Positions 7,554-61,506 of a DNA stretch of 64,000 bases are shown piece by piece. Under the pieces are notes generated by a model that was not told the origin of the DNA, did no database searches, and saw only the letters and a list, made by a program, of their open reading frames with translations. Location of the stretch: positions 1,321 through 65,320 of the forward strand of contig NJBN01000009.1 in the NCBI GenBank assembly GCA_005223185.1, in the 5' to 3' direction. Made by a program: the position numbers and the translations under genes. The DNA is from a candidate division LCP-89 bacterium B3_LCP (GTDB lineage: Bacteria; Electryoneota; B3-LCP). Numbering within the stretch: position 1 is the stretch's first letter; each line of letters begins with the position of its first letter.

Positions 7554-8003
7554 TTAGTTTCCGATGAGCTCTGTGACCTTCGCCACGACTTCTTCAGGTT
7601 CTATGGGCTTGTCGATAAACATTTCGGGTCTGACAAGCTCATCCTCTTGCATCGTCTTTATGGTCTCGCGTAATTTTTCCCGCAAACTATCATAAGGTCT
7701 CTCGAGAGTATCTTCACTCTGGGTATCAAGGTCCTCCAGGGTTTCCGCTACGCCTGTCAACATGATCACTTTCAGATCCTTGAATCTTTCATCCTTACGA
7801 ATCTGTTTATAGAGCACAAATCCTGATTTCTTAGGCATCATTATATCCAGGATAAGCAGATCCGGATTCTCACTCTTAATTTTCTCTATCCCTTCTACGC
7901 CATCGTACGCCCCAATCGGTTCGTAGCCATTCTCCTGCAAAGCTACTGAAAGAAATTTTACCGTATTCACATCATCATCAACTATGAGAACTTTTTTCGC
8001 CAT
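7554..8003 (-). CDS. Stand-alone CheY-like response regulator receiver
   Basis: LIVDDD…D…MP….G motif set (KVLIVDDDVNT; LLILDIMMPKKSG; KVIMLTG). No output domain. Confidence 0.8.
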   Translation of the reverse strand: MAKKVLIVDDDVNTVKFLSVALQENGYEPIGAYDGVEGIEKIKSENPDLLILDIMMPKKSGFVLYKQIRKDERFKDLKVIMLTGVAETLEDLDTQSEDTLERPYDSLREKLRETIKTMQEDELVRPEMFIDKPIEPEEVVAKVTELIGN

Positions 8004-9456
8004 CTATCTTCTCCTCGTTTATTTTAGTCTTATTTATGGGAAGCGTGATACGAAATACTGTACCACAGTTTGGTTTTGAATCTACCTCGATCTCTCCGTT
8101 ATGAGCCTCTATCATTCTCGAAGTAATCGACAAGCCCAAGCCCGTACCGGTCCTGGTTTTTGTGCTGAAGAAAGGGGTAAAAATGTTCTTCTTCACCTCT
8201 TTAGGCATTCCGCAGCCGTTGTCTTCGATCTCGATAACTGCTTTCTGACCGTCATGGTCCAGGTATGCGCTTAATACGATTTCAGGCGTCTCTCCGTCCA
8301 GAAATTCTTTCAGAACGCAGGCGTCCAGAGCATTGGACACTATGTCCATCACCGCTGAATGTATCATCCTGGCATCGCATAATACGGGAGGTAATTCGGA
8401 GGATAAATCCTGCCTGAATTGCACTCCTTTATCTTTCGCTGTCTGTTTTATTACGTTATCTATTTCAGAAAATATCTTAGACAGTTTTACCTGTTCGAAT
8501 TTGGGCTTCCATTCCTTCACGTACTTGAGCATGTGCATCGACATGTCAGTCAGACACGTGATCCCTTCCTGAACGATATCCCACCCCTCTTTGAGCATCT
8601 GTTGGTCATCCTTTGACAAACCGAGTCTGACCATGTAGGCGCCGCCCTTACAAGCATTCAGCATGTTTTTCATAGAATGTTGAATCCCCGTGAAGACCTG
8701 TCCGATAGCAGCATAACGCTGAGAATGAAGCAGTTGATCCTGCAGATGTTTCTCCGCAGTGATGTCCTTGCTGATCCCAATAGTGCCAATTACCTTGCCC
8801 GTTGGATCCCGCAGCCGTGAGATGGTATTCAGCACGTCTCTGACATCTCCGTTCTTCGTCCTGAACTGCGTCTCATAGTTCATCACATTGTCAGTCGGTC
8901 CCATCTTCTGGAGCGCCACTTCTCTGTCATGAGGATCAACGAAGAGCATTTCGATTGGTTTCCCAATCACATCCTGCCGCTGGTAGCCTAAGGCGGTTTC
9001 CGCTCCCTTGTTAATAGTCAGAATCTTGCCTTCAGGGCTAACTGTTATGATGATGTCCGCAGTACTCTCTAAGATGCCCTCTAAGAAATCCTTGTTTTTT
9101 CGCAGCTCTGCCTGGGATGACGCAAGCATAGAAGCCATATTATTGAATGAAGAGGCTAACGTGTTAAATTCATTTCTCTCGTCTTCATTCAACTGCGAAT
9201 CGAATTCATTTTCAGCCAGTTTATTCATACTATTAGCCAATTTACGAACAGGTTGTTTGATGAAGAAATATACAAAGAACCAGGCGGCTCCGCAACTAAG
9301 TATAATGGCAATTGCTATGGTGAAAAAGGTCTGCAGACTCCATTTGGAAACTGGATCTTCTCTTACACCCAAGAGGGCATCTACCAGCAGAACGAGCAAG
9401 CTGATAATTATGAAGACAAAGCTCAGTTTCCAGAAGATGGGGATTCGTTTCAACAT
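7978..9456 (-). CDS. Sensor histidine kinase (TM, PAS, HisKA-like, HATPase_c)
   Basis: Two N-terminal TM segments. PAS-like region (ILESTADIIITVSPEGKILTINKGAE). The C-terminus has the N/G1/G2 boxes of HATPase_c (DNGCGMP…GTGLGLSI). Confidence 0.8.
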   Translation of the reverse strand: MLKRIPIFWKLSFVFIIISLLVLLVDALLGVREDPVSKWSLQTFFTIAIAIILSCGAAWFFVYFFIKQPVRKLANSMNKLAENEFDSQLNEDERNEFNTLASSFNNMASMLASSQAELRKNKDFLEGILESTADIIITVSPEGKILTINKGAETALGYQRQDVIGKPIEMLFVDPHDREVALQKMGPTDNVMNYETQFRTKNGDVRDVLNTISRLRDPTGKVIGTIGISKDITAEKHLQDQLLHSQRYAAIGQVFTGIQHSMKNMLNACKGGAYMVRLGLSKDDQQMLKEGWDIVQEGITCLTDMSMHMLKYVKEWKPKFEQVKLSKIFSEIDNVIKQTAKDKGVQFRQDLSSELPPVLCDARMIHSAVMDIVSNALDACVLKEFLDGETPEIVLSAYLDHDGQKAVIEIEDNGCGMPKEVKKNIFTPFFSTKTRTGTGLGLSITSRMIEAHNGEIEVDSKPNCGTVFRITLPINKTKINEEKIDGEKSSHS

Positions 9457-38561: not shown

Positions 38562-38879
38562 GACAACCTCATGTGAAGCTTCAGTCTTTTCTAAAGATAA
38601 TAAGTTTTTATCAAAAAATCAAGCACAAATCTAATAAAAACGATAAAATTTACAATTGATAGGAATTTACAATTTATTAATCACAGCACACAATAGTTCA
38701 TTGCTATTTCTAAACGGAAGAATCCCACCAGCATTACAAAAATATCCATAATTATAACTTGACTTTGCAGATTAAAACAGCGATTTTATTTTGCTAATTA
38801 TTTTGTACTGCACATCTCCCATTTTCAAAGCTGCTGGCACTGCCAGATCACCTGATTGACAACTTCTTCCAAAAGGTGA

Positions 38880-40238
38880 ATGATGAAAGCTCCGCAAATC
38901 TTACTCACTCCCGGAAGCGAAAAGAACTGTGTCAGACTGAAATCGCTCTTAATGAATCAAGGATTCAGAGTACAGGAAGCCGATTCCATTGTTCATGATT
39001 TACCTCCATTGCTTGAAGATCCACCGGAGGTTGTAATCTTCCACACCAACCACACTAATACAGCTGAAATCATTCTTTCCATCAAACGCATCCGGCGCCA
39101 GGATCCCTGGATTCCACTGTTCATTACAGCGGAATCCAGCAGTGAGGACCAGGCGATTACTATGTTCAGGGCGGGAATCACTGATTACTTTAAAGTTCCC
39201 TATTCACTAAATGAGTTGGTTGCGAGTATTAAGAGGAACTTACCCCGCCACATGATGAATGCTGGCAATTCCTTCATCGATCAGAGGATGATCGGAGAGA
39301 GCCAGGTTATGCAATCCATAAAAGACAGTCTAAGAAAAATCGCCAGAACCACGGCGAGTGTTCTAATCAGTGGTGAAACCGGAACGGGAAAAGAGTTGGT
39401 CGCAGAACTAATTCACGAAGAGAGTCCCAGAAGCGGCAAACCATTTATCTGTATAAACTGTGCAGCGGTACCAGAGGCACTAATGGAAAGCGAGTTTTTC
39501 GGTTACGAACGGGGAGCTTTCACCGGTGCATTAGCCTTGAAACGAGGTAAATTCGAGTCAGCCTCACAGGGGACAGTCTTCCTGGATGAAATCAGCGAAA
39601 TGAGCACCAAGTGCCAAGCCAAATTGTTGAGAGTAATCGAGTTTAAGAAGACATATCGTTTAGGCGGTAACACCTGCATTCCTTTAGATTTCAGAGTGAT
39701 TGCAGCTACCAACCGCGATCCTGTGAGATTGGTCAGCGAGGAACGATTCAGGGAAGATCTGTACTACCGGCTGAACGTTGCCCACATTCATCTTCCTCCT
39801 TTGCGGAACCGGAGAGATGACGTCCCTTTGCTGGTCGATTATTTTATAAAGCAGTTGAATCGAAAATTTAAGCGTGCGGTAAAAGGAGTCACCGACAATG
39901 CTATGAATTATCTTTTGGAATATCACTGGCCGGGGAATATTCGAGAGTTGCAAAATCTTTTAGAAGCCGCCTTCATCGATCTTCCGGAGAGGAATTTGTC
40001 CTTCATCGATCTCCCCCAAAGGCCGGATCATGTGGATCGTGAGACCAGATTGCCCATAGTCAATGAAAGAGATAATATGATTTCTGCACTTCTGGAGACC
40101 GATTGGAATAAGAGTAAGGCTGCGGAAAAACTCAATTGGTCACGCATGACCCTGTACCGGAAGATGCAGAAATATCATATATCGAGAGGCGCGCCAAAAG
40201 GCGAAATGCACAACTCGCTGGATTCGATCATCAAATAA
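38880..40238 (+). CDS. Sigma-54-dependent transcriptional activator (enhancer-binding protein) with degenerate receiver-like N-terminal domain
   Basis: AAA+ sigma-54 interaction domain (VLISGETGTGKELVAELIH; GAFTGA; ESEFFGYERGAFTGA). C-terminal HTH (…WNKSKAAEKLNWSRMTLYRKM). The N-terminal domain is about 120 aa and receiver-like, but the acidic pocket and phospho-Asp positions are substituted (LLTPGSEKN; VVIFHTNHTN). Confidence 0.8.
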   Translation: MMKAPQILLTPGSEKNCVRLKSLLMNQGFRVQEADSIVHDLPPLLEDPPEVVIFHTNHTNTAEIILSIKRIRRQDPWIPLFITAESSSEDQAITMFRAGITDYFKVPYSLNELVASIKRNLPRHMMNAGNSFIDQRMIGESQVMQSIKDSLRKIARTTASVLISGETGTGKELVAELIHEESPRSGKPFICINCAAVPEALMESEFFGYERGAFTGALALKRGKFESASQGTVFLDEISEMSTKCQAKLLRVIEFKKTYRLGGNTCIPLDFRVIAATNRDPVRLVSEERFREDLYYRLNVAHIHLPPLRNRRDDVPLLVDYFIKQLNRKFKRAVKGVTDNAMNYLLEYHWPGNIRELQNLLEAAFIDLPERNLSFIDLPQRPDHVDRETRLPIVNERDNMISALLETDWNKSKAAEKLNWSRMTLYRKMQKYHISRGAPKGEMHNSLDSIIK

Positions 40239-40358
40239 TGTAACATTGTAACATATTTGTAACATAGATTAAATTCCTAAAACCCAGCTATAATCATTGC
40301 GGGTTTCATCCCCCCATACCTTGTATCAATTAGCTGTTACAATCTCCTGATTGTTACA
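40239..40358. promoter_or_regulatory. Array of five heptamer repeats TGTAACA (x3, direct) and TGTTACA (x2, inverted orientation)
   Basis: TGTAACA at 40239, 40247 and 40258. TGTTACA at 40335 and 40352. The array starts one base after the activator stop codon, upstream of the injection-system locus. Confidence 0.45.
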
Positions 40359-40517
40359 GTATCCTGCCCATTAGACTAAGTCAACAAGTCATCGCCTATA
40401 TCGACGATAATCCCACTCCTAAAGAAGTATTATGAAAACGGTATTATATTTGCTTAAGTGAATTGATACACCGTTAGCATTGTTCTAAAACAGATGTCTT
40501 TTTAAACATGGAGTAGT

Positions 40518-40763
40518 ATGGATATGCATGAGGAGGCCGAGTCTCAAATTGAAAAGCCGGTGGGACGTTATGCCAATTTTTTCAATATAGGTCATAATGC
40601 ATTTGAATTCCTGATTGATTTTGGCCAGCTTTATTTAGATGGTCACACCGTTCAATATCATACTCGAATTGTCACCAACCCTGTCTATGCAATGGAACTA
40701 TATAAAACATTAAAATCATCCATTGAGCAATATGAGGATCATTTTGGGGAGAAAAGCAGATAG
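40518..40763 (+). CDS. Small conserved hypothetical protein (81 aa) preceding the eCIS structural genes
   Basis: Complete ORF. Acidic, no TM. Function unknown. Confidence 0.4.
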   Translation: MDMHEEAESQIEKPVGRYANFFNIGHNAFEFLIDFGQLYLDGHTVQYHTRIVTNPVYAMELYKTLKSSIEQYEDHFGEKSR

Positions 40764-57837: not shown

Positions 57838-60800
57838 ATGAAAACGCAAATATCACGGGATAGTTACAGCAAGAAAGACCGTTATTCAGGCGTGTACCAG
57901 CAACAAGGACGCATGCTCACCGATGCGGACTGGAACGAGTCCATCGAAGTCTTCAAGGGGCTTCTACAGGAAGCCTTGAAAGACGTCATAGGTGATGGTG
58001 CGCCGCGGTCAAATGCACTCACCATTGAACAATCATCTGGTCTTAAAAAGAAAATCTATATCAAACCTGGTGATCTCTATGTGGATGGTCTGCGTGCTGA
58101 ACTTGCTGAACTTTCGGATGGGTCAAATATAGCCCTCAATGGACAAGATGATCTCCCCCTCGATGAACAGTGTTATCTCCCCACCGGTAGCAATTTCACA
58201 AATCCCACAAACTGTATTATCTATGCGGACGTCTGGGATCGTTCGATAACGTCCTTGGAAGACACTGACCTGCGTGATCCAGGCCTTCACGGAGCGGATA
58301 CCTGTACCCGTACTCAGCGCATGTTACAGATCAAATGGTGTCCGGACACTATCGACCCGGAAAATCCTGATGAGATGGTTAGAAAAGGAGATGCAGCGCT
58401 AACCCTCGAGTTGAGGTCCAACGAACCCTCTGCTGATGTCTGCAATCCCTGTTCGCAGTTACTCGAATCCGAGATTGGCGATGTGGGCAACTACCTGTTC
58501 CGTTTGGAAGTGCATGATATAGAGGTTGATGAAACATCTGGCAATCCGACCAAACTTACCCTGAAGTGGTCATCTGAAAACGGTGCTGAAAGCTACGAAG
58601 CCAAGAGTGAATCCGAGATGCCGCCGGGATTTGTTAACAGCTTTTCCGACGACGGCAGTTATGTGTATGAATTCTTCAGCGATACCAGTGAAAAGCACTT
58701 AGGCGTACATAAAGCGACTGAGTATAAGCCGATACGGGGTGCAATTAAAGAGAGCTACGATCCAAAAAGTGAACCATACGTCCGCCGCTGGGATGGCTAT
58801 TGCATTCTCACATATTCCGGGGGGGAGTGGTCGCTGGAAAAAACCAAAGTATTGGGCAAGAATAAGTACAAGGGAACGGATTCGAACAAAAGATTAGAAG
58901 AGAAAGCTACCCTAAAAGATAAACAACTCGGCGACGTCGTTATCAATAACGACATCGTCATACAGCTTGAAGCGTTGCAATTGACATTAACCTTGAAAGA
59001 TAATAACTTTGTCGCTGGAGACTACTGGTTGGCGCCAGTACGCGCTGAAGTTGAATATCTCGACGATTTTCTTTTAATCAATGCAAAGCCGATTGGAATC
59101 GATCATCACTATCTCACTCTCGCAAGCGTGGATAACAATGGAGATGTAACTCAGTACGGTGACATGAATGATAAAAATCACCGCCGTCAAAATTTCCCAC
59201 CTCTGACTGATCTCAATGCTGAGGAAATTGGATATACCACTGATTGTAGTAATGACTTATTCGATTCTACAGACGATAATGTTGCGAAGGCACTAAACAG
59301 ACTTTGTCAAATTGCGGCAGAGCACATAGGCTTTTCCAATCCATGTCCAAAAAAAATAGGAATATTCAAGGGCGAAGAGATTGGTAACGTGGAAGACGCT
59401 TTGAATCTCTTGTGCCACCTGGCGGCTTCACATGTTAAATACACGCCCGGCGGTTGTATAAACAAAGTCGGAGAAGATGAGGAATTATATTATGGCATGG
59501 TAGAAAATACGGTGCAAGAAGCGCTGGATAAAATATGCGAGATTACAGCGAAACACATTACTTATGATCCGAGTTGTGCCTTTCTGAGGGATCAGAAGAA
59601 TCCTAAGATTGAAACAGTTCATGAAGCTCTCGAAGCGCTTTGCAACCGACCTACTGGCGGCAGCGGTGGGTGTAGAGTAACTGTGGGAAAAAAGGAAGAA
59701 GGAGCTGAGTTTGAGACACTAGATGAAGCGTTATCGTCTTGTTTGAGTCCCCAAATTAAAGACGTCTGCATTTGTCTTCTTCCCGGAAATCATAAGCCTC
59801 CATCTCAAGGAATACTTACAGAATTCAAAGGAAATAATTCGGAAGTCTCGAAGGGATTAAACATCAGTATAATAGGCTGCGGTCCAGGGTCTCGAATTGG
59901 CCTTGGGGATCAATCCCTTGAGTTCTCTCAGTTTAATTCTCTAACGTTTAAGGATTTCGAGTTTAATAGTTCAGAGAATGGCGGAGCACAATTATTTTTC
60001 GATAGTTGTACTAATGTGAATCTCTCTTCAATTAATTATGAAGGACATGTTGGCGATAAATCATCGCTGGTGAAGATAGGCGATGCAGAACGTATCCAGC
60101 TATTAGGAAACAAGTTCGAAGCCCGACGCTCCGATAGTCCGGAAAATCCTGCGGAGGTCTTCGAGTTTAATCCGGGGTATTCCGAATTGTTCCGCTTGTC
60201 TTCAAGGAATGAATTTCTCAAGGAGGTTCCTGAAGTAGCGCGAGAAATGAGCAGCCGTTTCTCTAAGGGGGGTGAAGTTACAAAAGCTCGCAATTCCATA
60301 ACCAACAGCAGGAATGCCATAGTAGCAAATCAACAGACAACTCACAAGGAACAAGTAAGTTACGATAGGCTCTTAGGTGTAATATCAGCGGCTGAAACGA
60401 TGGAACCTGAAATGGCAACAGCAGTTTACGCTGACATCTTAGTGCAGATATACGATTTTGCGCGTGAAGCAGCCCTTGAATGCTCACTGTCACTGATGGA
60501 TGCAAATGCTCAGACCATAATAAAGAATAATATCTTCAAAGGAGCTATTAGTCTATATGGTGAGCCGCCTGATAGCAGCGTTACTATAAATCTTGACGAT
60601 GAAATCCTCGGCAGCCAGCTTTTTAACCAGACGCTTAACCTGGCGACCTCAGATGTTGATTTACACTTCTGCAACAATGAAGTTATCAAATTTATCCTCG
60701 GTGCGCGTTATGCTGAGAGCCTTGCTGGAGCTCTAAAAGGAAAAGGTTCTACAATATCGGACTCAATACCGACGCTTTTTAAAACCGGTTATTTTACTGA

Positions 60801-61506
60801 TAACACGATAAAAGAATCGTATAACTACTTTTACTTTGGGCATCTTGACCTGACCTCCAACTCTTTTGAAACTTTAGAAGAAAATGCTGGTTTTGTGTTC
60901 GGTGGTTCCGCAATTTATGTAGGAAACAAGGGTAATAAAGGAGAAGAGGTAAGCAAAATATACAACTGCACCAATGCCTGCAGAAAAGCAGCAAATCTTC
61001 ATCTAAACATACAGGGATGTGAGGATCGTGTCTATGAAAATCCACCGGTAGTGGGAATAGACCTCGGTAGTTTAGGGATAACCGGCAATTACGCCGTTGC
61101 CTGGCAACCCGGGTCTATAACTCCGACAATAATAGACAAATCATCAAGTGTACTTACACCTACGCCTACACCTAGGCTTACGCCGACACCTACACCAACT
61201 CCGACACCTACGCCAACACCGACACCTAGGCCTACGCCAACACCAACGCCAACACCGACACCTAGGCCTACGCCAACTCCTACTCCAACACCTACGCCTA
61301 CGCCAACTCCTACACCTACGCCTACACCAACGCCAACACCGACACCTAGGCCTACGCCAACACCTACGCCTACACCAACACCTACGCCTATACCTGCACC
61401 GTTGACTCAGATTAAACCAACCGGCAAACCAAAGTCAACTGGAAAGTCTAAATCGCCAAAGAAAACCAGAGGGCCAGGAAAAACTAAACCCAAGAAGAAA
61501 CCTTAG
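57838..61506 (+). CDS. Tail fibre-like protein (1222 aa) with C-terminal (Thr-Pro)n linker and poly-Lys tail
   Basis: Position after the P2-I-like gene (the Afp13 slot). Cys-pair-containing repeated modules. About 80 residues of TPTPTPRP repeats (61153-61400), followed by [30 protein letters not shown]. Confidence 0.6.
61153..61400 (+). repeat. Imperfect tandem hexanucleotide repeat encoding (Thr-Pro)n
   Basis: ACACCTACGCCTACGCCAACACCGACACCTAGGCCT… units repeated about 40 times. An alternate frame gives the artefactual ORF 61148-61405 (LRLHLGLR…). Confidence 0.9.

Follow-up and report, generated by a model that had tools for sequence, protein, structure and literature searches.

The locus and its heptamer array

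We analyzed a 64,000-nucleotide stretch of DNA (the window) from candidate division LCP-89 bacterium B3_LCP, in which an intergenic region separates the gene for a sigma-54 enhancer-binding protein (EBP) from the genes of an extracellular contractile injection system (eCIS). The region carries an array of the heptamers TGTAACA and TGTTACA. These very probably form a two-part enhancer (upstream activating sequence, UAS) for a predicted sigma-54 promoter, which would drive the eCIS operon from its first gene, encoding a DUF3467 protein. The features are listed below; negative numbers give heptamer starts relative to the first base of the promoter 16-mer.

38880-40238, + strand: sigma-54 EBP gene, 452 aa (from Pfam, the translation and the family alignment)
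40239-40245, 40247-40253 and 40258-40264, + strand: putative distal enhancer cluster, three exact TGTAACA copies with gaps of 1 and 4 nt (-200, -192 and -181)
40322-40358, + strand: putative proximal enhancer cluster, TGTATCA at 40322-40328 (-117), TGTTACA at 40335-40341 (-104) and TGTTACA at 40352-40358 (-87)
40439-40454, + strand: predicted sigma-54 (-24/-12) promoter CGGTAT-N5-TTGCT, with GG at 40440-40441 and GC at 40452-40453
40518-40763, + strand: DUF3467 gene, 81 aa, first gene of the presumed regulated operon (Pfam PF11950, 3.6e-13)
40922-62923, all + strand: eCIS structural and accessory genes (from Pfam)

The eCIS genes encode sheath, tube, T4-type baseplate, Pvc16, AAA ATPase, second tube, spike (Phage_base_V), baseplate J, Tail_P2_I, DUF6519 and eCIS_core proteins. 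The proteins by which an eCIS locus is recognized (sheath, tube, baseplate, spike, a Pvc16-like protein, an AAA ATPase and eCIS_core, DUF4157) are therefore all encoded in one cluster. A preliminary description of this DNA had named a sigma-54 activator and an injection-system operon, and the Pfam domains bear out both identities.

The stop codon of the EBP gene (TAA) occupies positions 40236-40238, and the first TGTAACA begins at the very next base. Reading the sequence confirmed the trio as previously described, directly behind the stop codon and with gaps of 1 and 4 nt. The two TGTTACA copies, said to follow about 70 bp further on, also lie where they had been placed, separated from the last TGTAACA by 70 bp and from each other by 10 nt. 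The preliminary description had set the two words against each other as direct and reverse-complement copies. The copies stand, but every heptamer is itself a palindrome, TGT-N-ACA, and the contrast in orientation is reduced to the central base, the only position at which TGTAACA and TGTTACA differ. It had also overlooked a heptamer with one mismatch, TGTATCA, 6 nt 5' of the first TGTTACA; the resulting pair, TGTATCA-N6-TGTTACA, is the arrangement conserved among relatives. In an inverted-repeat search the two TGTTACA copies were found within a 26-nt near-palindrome, CTGTTACAATC-N4-GATTGTTACAG, and the pair was also scored as a direct repeat.

Across the window there are 13 copies of TGTAACA or TGTTACA, compared with 6.3 ± 2.5 in shuffled sequences, and none of 100 shuffles reached 13. 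Five of the 13 fall within 120 bp. Based on the background rate given by the other copies in the window, at least five copies in 120 bp have a Poisson probability of 2e-11; multiplied by the 64,000 start positions, this becomes about 1e-6. The preliminary description had named random occurrence of the word as a counter-explanation. Outside the cluster the heptamers of the window do occur at the chance rate, and five exact heptamers in 120 bp are far beyond chance.

A conserved layout in related loci

A scan of GTDB genomes was tried as a source of orthologues of the EBP and was set aside; it returned only paralogues with 34-47% identity, none of them beside eCIS genes. The 77 paralogous EBP genes without eCIS genes nearby serve here as negative controls. 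Members of the EBP family proper, 50-57% identical over 96% of the length, were found in a large protein collection. We looked up six of them, and all six are encoded directly upstream of DUF3467 and eCIS genes. The EBP-DUF3467 intergenic regions in these six loci are 430-1146 bp long and mostly unalignable with that of the window. The order of elements is common to all six: a distal cluster, one or more proximal heptamers and a sigma-54 promoter.

In these orthologous loci the distal cluster reads TGTAACA-N1/2-TGTNAC(N)-N6-TGTNACA, in some cases extended by a further N6-TGTNACA, and it lies anywhere from 40 to more than 700 bp past the EBP stop codon. The proximal pair, TGTAACA-N5/6-TGTKACA, follows 57-150 bp past the distal cluster; two loci (L083 and L088) have only one exact proximal heptamer. 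The promoter lies about 98-111 bp past the proximal heptamers and reads TGGCAC-N5-TTGCT/C, matching 10-11 of 11 consensus positions. The promoter of L088 is instead TGGTAT-N5-TTGCT, a variant of the same type as the CGGTAT-N5-TTGCT of the window.

A second sample was chosen independently of both the EBP and the heptamers. An alignment of seven DUF3467 proteins was used to scan metagenome contigs, and 80 loci were retrieved, mostly from soils and sediments. Where the upstream DNA is long enough, nearly every locus has a TGG-N-TTGC promoter 45-110 bp ahead of DUF3467, and an EBP with 43-62% identity is encoded in many of the loci whose contig reaches far enough.

Removal of near-duplicates among the loci found via the EBP or via DUF3467 left 54 non-redundant loci, including the window. 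When these are anchored on the promoter, TGTNACA is confined to two zones, -300 to -175 and -120 to -98. Between -130 and -170 there is none save a single copy in the -160 bin, and from -80 to the promoter there is essentially none. The density in the enhancer zone is 12.3 heptamers per kb, 69-fold that in the remaining 268 kb of the loci (0.18 per kb); downstream of the 77 control EBP genes it is 0.14 per kb. At least one enhancer-zone heptamer is present in 52 of the 54 loci and at least two in 43.

The most conserved feature of the family is a heptamer pair at -117/-104 with a spacing of 12-13 bp, and the TGTATCA at -117 and the heptamer at -104 of the window coincide with it. The same TGTATCA-N6-TGTKACA pair occurs in two further loci (L186 and L194). 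In the closest relative (L157, EBP 57% identical) copies lie at -199, -188, -175, -118 and -106. Neighboring heptamers are mostly 11-13 bp apart, about one helical turn, which is typical for the sites of helix-turn-helix (HTH) dimers. On the promoter strand, 110 of the 154 exact copies have a purine at the central position, and the sites therefore have a preferred orientation. The idea that the six heptamers of the window correspond to one hexamer was dropped, as the number in relatives varies from 0 to 7 and is most often 4. The layout conserved across the 54 loci supports the proposal, already made in the preliminary description, that the array acts as a UAS for a sigma-54 promoter of the eCIS operon.

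The predicted sigma-54 promoter

In the candidate promoter of the window, CGGTAT-N5-TTGCT, the distance from GG to GC is exactly 10 nt. Transcription is predicted to start near 40464-40466, about 53 nt 5' of the ATG. The site lies 79 bp upstream of the DUF3467 start codon, compared with 45-110 bp in most relatives. Counting consensus matches alone fails to set it apart from dozens of other GG-N10-GC sites in the window, and a family model is needed. We built a position weight matrix (PWM) from the promoters of the 53 other loci (consensus tTGGcac-N5-TTGC). Based on this PWM, the site scores 8.8 bits, which places it 11th among the 127,950 positions of the two strands of the window.

Six intergenic regions were tested with the PWM: the two flanking the EBP gene, the gap between DUF3467 and the sheath gene, and three gaps inside the eCIS cluster. 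The candidate promoter is the only notable plus-strand match among them, and the gaps tested inside the eCIS cluster yielded no further sigma-54-like site. A sigma-70-type scan gave no match between 40239 and 40517. Near-identical promoter variants are present in relatives (TGGTAT-N5-TTGCT in L088, L193 and L197; CGGTAC or CGGCAT in L224 and L171). We take 40439-40454 to be a real promoter because of its PWM rank, its standing as the sole intergenic match and its family-like offsets, and transcription would start there. By its location it is the likely positional homologue of the strong promoters of the family. A weak GG-N10-GC candidate had been pointed out earlier at 40437-40453. Both the site and the weakness of its match stand, its limits are now 40439-40454, and its position matches that of the strong family promoters.

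The best PWM match in the window is a different site, CTGGGATGGCTATTGCAT at 58785-58810 (+ strand, 16.2 bits). It lies in a coding region, inside the open reading frame (ORF) 57838-61506, and heptamers are absent from the expected offset. A chance match is the probable explanation, an internal promoter a possible one.

The activator and its neighborhood

The EBP has a receiver-like N-terminus followed by a Sigma54_activat domain (PF00158, 3.2e-67), an AAA lid and a C-terminal Fis-type HTH (HTH_8, 2.7e-13, residues 396-432). The GAFTGA loop is intact (YERGAFTGA in the translation). The Walker A, GAFTGA and arginine-rich AAA+ motifs do not vary among ten aligned family members, nor does the HTH helix WSRMTLYRK. 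An invariant helix fits an invariant DNA word. The heptamer variants (TGTNACA versus TGTATCA) were compared with the HTH for covariation, and the invariant recognition helix left no variation to compare. Relatives of the EBP are annotated as Desulfobacterales or Deltaproteobacteria.

The receiver-like domain, about 125 N-terminal residues encoded at 38880-39250, scores 21.7 bits against Response_reg, below the cut-off of 30.2. It retains the conserved Ser/Thr and the Lys-x-Pro. In alignment with solved receivers, the position of the phosphorylated Asp of PrrA, PhoP and KdpE is occupied by a residue other than Asp, which is His in the EBP of the window and C, G, N, E, F or Y in its relatives. 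Judging from this alignment, the whole eCIS-associated EBP family appears to be a family of aspartate-less receivers. A classical two-component response regulator of the NtrC family was ruled out, as the phospho-acceptor Asp at the end of beta-3 is absent; a database entry for the identical protein, from candidate division LCP-89 bacterium B3_LCP, calls it a 'two-component system response regulator'. The EBP reached no NCBIfam equivalog cut-off, including those for NtrC and every other named EBP, and we therefore assign the family to what its sequences indicate is an unnamed EBP subfamily.

Without a phospho-acceptor Asp in its receiver, the EBP is unlikely to be driven by a histidine kinase, and such a kinase probably does not set the switch. 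The only histidine kinase seen in the window (7978-9456, - strand, HAMP-PAS-HATPase_c) is encoded 30 kb from the EBP gene and, given the aspartate-less receiver, is an unlikely partner.

Within the EBP coding sequence, a 23-nt direct repeat (39970-40022, 83% identity, 30 nt apart) encodes FIDLPER...FIDLPQR. The duplication sits between the AAA lid and the HTH, and relatives have a similar arrangement (FINLPSRKIAFxDLPK), so it is a feature of the family.

The gene on the other side of the EBP gene, on the minus strand, encodes a C25-type peptidase with a type IX secretion system (T9SS) sorting domain. The divergent intergenic region between the two genes contains a direct repeat, AATTTACAATTGAT / AATTTACAATTTAT, at 38647-38677. 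Its starts are 17 bp apart, the same spacing as in the TGTTACA pair, and its core TTTACAA is related to the heptamer. It is possibly a site that controls the EBP gene itself.

In nearly all related loci, DUF3467 is conserved as the gene that comes first after the sigma-54 promoter. A single-sequence AlphaFold model of the protein (predicted local distance difference test score, pLDDT, 60.5; predicted template modeling score, pTM, 0.30) was too poor for use. A role for the protein as an assembly factor, or as a partner of the EBP in feedback, is speculation.

Heptamers without an adjacent activator

Loci found through DUF3467 that have no EBP gene within 3.5 kb of the heptamers share a second architecture (class II). 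There, the upstream gene is a divergent gene for a Pvc15-like AAA ATPase (winged-helix domain and AAA). Contigs WNFI01110513.1 and Ga0306921_10000041 are examples of this class. In eight of the nine such loci examined, a leftward sigma-54 promoter, TGGCAAC-N4-ATTGCC, precedes this gene with a score of 13.5-16.9 bits, and the TGTNACA heptamers lie between the two divergent promoters.

L164 2879-2894, - strand: predicted leftward promoter of the ATPase gene (also in L148, L150, L151, L154, L168, L174 and L200)

This arrangement suggests that more than one eCIS transcription unit may belong to the same sigma-54 regulon, and the second architecture shows that the EBP need not be adjacent.

The DNA pattern of the distal cluster was also used to scan viral contigs. 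The 56 matches, which we estimate to be far more than chance would give, are unrelated phage heptamer arrays. Phage contigs L091-L101 and other viral loci have 6-8 copies of TGTAACA or TGTTACA within about 150 bp, sometimes in several arrays per contig (for example L093 6460-6620, L095 1640-1790, L098 and L092). No EBP, DUF3467 or sigma-54 promoter was found near these arrays, and a scan of the viral contigs with DUF3467 gave no match. The arrays look like iterons or operator arrays for a phage protein. When one array was compared by BLAST with GenBank phages, no phage group could be assigned.

Proposed mechanism and alternative explanations

Sigma-54 is unable to open promoters without an EBP, and the sites of such activators lie 80-200 bp upstream of -24/-12 promoters. 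In the mechanism that we propose, dimers of the EBP would bind through the C-terminal Fis-type HTH to the TGTNACA pairs at about -200/-181 and -117/-87, with each heptamer pair taken as the binding unit of a dimer. The bound dimers would assemble into an active AAA+ ring, and DNA looping would bring the ring to sigma-54 RNA polymerase waiting in a closed complex at 40439-40454. ATP hydrolysis through the GAFTGA loop would then open the promoter and allow transcription of DUF3467 through the eCIS genes. For integration host factor (IHF), we found no convincing consensus site, only a mild rise in A+T at -60 to -30 across the family. The switch would be set by an input other than a histidine kinase, or simply by the amount of EBP.

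Our confidence differs between the parts of this proposal. We are confident that the heptamers constitute an enhancer for the sigma-54 promoter of the operon, and somewhat less so that the adjacent EBP is the protein that binds them. The dependence of operon transcription on sigma-54 and on the EBP is what we infer from comparative sequence analysis.

Several observations weigh against the proposal. The two exact proximal copies in the window are 17 bp apart, compared with 12-13 bp in relatives. No sigma-54 factor domain (rpoN) was detected in the 37 ORFs of the 64-kb window that were scanned with Pfam (drawn from the 41 listed at ≥150 aa, plus the 81-aa DUF3467 ORF). The heptamer is not exclusive to the EBP, given the dense arrays in phage contigs that lack one. 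Among the loci found through DUF3467 with long flanks, about half have no EBP within 3.5 kb, and adjacency is not universal. The HTH recognition helix is generic among EBPs, and because it resembles that of many others its sequence alone is not predictive of TGTNACA. Finally, the promoter of the window is a weak match, with 8.8 bits against a family median of 18.5 (range 7.6-23.2), with C for T before the GG and GGTAT for GGCAC.

The alternative that survives best takes the phage arrays, the class II loci and the generic helix as its starting point. The heptamers would be conserved sites for another DNA-binding protein, for instance a nucleoid-associated protein, a repressor or a regulator of phage origin, and the EBP would bind elsewhere or act without specific sites. 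We regard this as unlikely. The fixed distance of -117/-104 from the sigma-54 promoter in dozens of loci is the geometry of an activator, whereas a repressor site would overlap the promoter. In addition, the EBP gene is the only regulator gene conserved beside the module, with no other conserved DNA-binding gene in the neighborhood.

It is less probable still that the heptamers are an enhancer that serves a promoter other than CGGTAT-N5-TTGCT, either of a housekeeping type or located elsewhere. The score of the site, near the bottom of the family range, and its lack of distinction in the simple consensus count leave some room for such a promoter. Its offsets from the heptamer (-104) and from the DUF3467 start (79 bp) nevertheless match the family, the five relatives named above have near-identical variants, and neither the sigma-70-type scan upstream of DUF3467 nor the intergenic gaps tested offered a better site.

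That the heptamer run is a chance low-complexity repeat, or a terminator or 3' RNA structure of the EBP gene, can practically be dismissed: the first heptamer does abut the stop codon and the stretch between the two clusters contains an imperfect hairpin, AAACCCAGC...GCGGGTTT, at 40281-40308, but the corrected probability of the cluster is about 1e-6, the distance from stop codon to distal cluster ranges in relatives from 40 to more than 700 bp, so that this cluster is not tied to the gene end, and an intrinsic terminator was rejected, with no terminator-like site on the plus strand between 38500 and 41200 and an RNA fold of 40236-40340 no better than that of shuffled sequences (z = -0.9). Two further binding-site types, the CRP-type TGTGA-N6-TCACA and the LexA-type CTGT-N8-ACAG, do not fit the sequence.

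Significance and comparison with known systems

Apart from a few model systems, little has been described of how eCIS particles are switched on. The enhancer proposed here would be a switch readable from sequence for one eCIS lineage, made up of an activator gene, the probable word TGTNACA paired about one helical turn apart, and a sigma-54 promoter, with sites at the fixed -117/-104 positions plus about -200 to -300. The arrangement recurs in more than 50 independent environmental loci, including one from candidate phylum LCP-89. If the proposal is right, the eCIS regulon could be read from sequence, and expression of a single activator could turn on eCIS clusters that are silent in uncultured bacteria, which would give a handle for inducing eCIS production of uncultured organisms in a heterologous host. 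Phosphorylation would then not be needed for the activator to sense its signal, which may reach it through a partner protein.

A literature search returned no paper linking eCIS to sigma-54, RpoN or EBPs, none describing the module via DUF3467, and none combining TGTAACA with sigma-54. The mechanism, an EBP enhancer acting on sigma-54, is textbook, and the conceptual surprise is therefore moderate; we found no earlier description of its use for eCIS. We lean towards the view that TGTNACA enhancers, a -24/-12 promoter and a dedicated EBP with an aspartate-less receiver together make up an undescribed master switch, conserved across phyla, for the eCIS lineage whose loci begin with DUF3467.

A close model for the layout is NtrC. 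At glnAp2 of enteric bacteria, NtrC sites lie at about -140 and -108. The window similarly has short dyad-like sites, grouped in two clusters that precede a GG-N10-GC promoter by about 90-200 bp, and the EBP has the same order of a receiver-like domain, AAA+ with GAFTGA and a Fis-type HTH. Activation through looping and ATP hydrolysis is expected here as well. In contrast to NtrC, the word is TGTNACA rather than TGCACC-N5-GGTGCA, the receiver lacks the phospho-acceptor Asp, and the target is an eCIS operon and not a metabolic gene.

Two other sites for HTH domains of the EBP family are the TyrR/PhhR box, TGTAAA-N6-TTTACA, and the NifA UAS, TGT-N10-ACA. Compared with these consensus sequences, the heptamers share the TGT start and the ACA end, and the half-site TGTAA(A/C) is nearly the same. 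They differ in that the outer TGT...ACA distance is N14 (at 13-bp spacing), N12 (at 11-bp) or N18 (at 17-bp), and in that each heptamer is a self-contained palindrome. Neither the TyrR box nor the NifA UAS was found in the clusters of the window, which consist of TGT-N1-ACA units at 8, 11, 13 and 17 bp.

A functional parallel is found in type VI secretion systems (T6SS), where the EBPs VasH, Sfa2 and Sfa3 are encoded in the secretion clusters and activate them via sigma-54 (PMC3439928, PMC3804575; review PMC10482370). In both cases a dedicated EBP stands beside a contractile, phage-tail-like injection machine, here with a predicted sigma-54 switch. The machine differs, being an eCIS rather than a T6SS, and a TGTNACA enhancer is not reported in these three papers.

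For eCIS themselves, Geller et al. 2021 described a GerE/LuxR regulator as the first conserved eCIS regulator (PMC8213781), and to date it is the only one so described. The main text of that paper makes no mention of sigma-54 or EBPs. Its supplementary tables count, in eCIS operons, 49 genes with Sigma54_activat (odds ratio 1.59) and 6 with DUF3467 (odds ratio 17.6), with Ppro_0378/0379 of Pelobacter propionicus as an example. Like the EBP described here, the GerE/LuxR regulator recurs beside eCIS loci; it is from another protein family and works without sigma-54.

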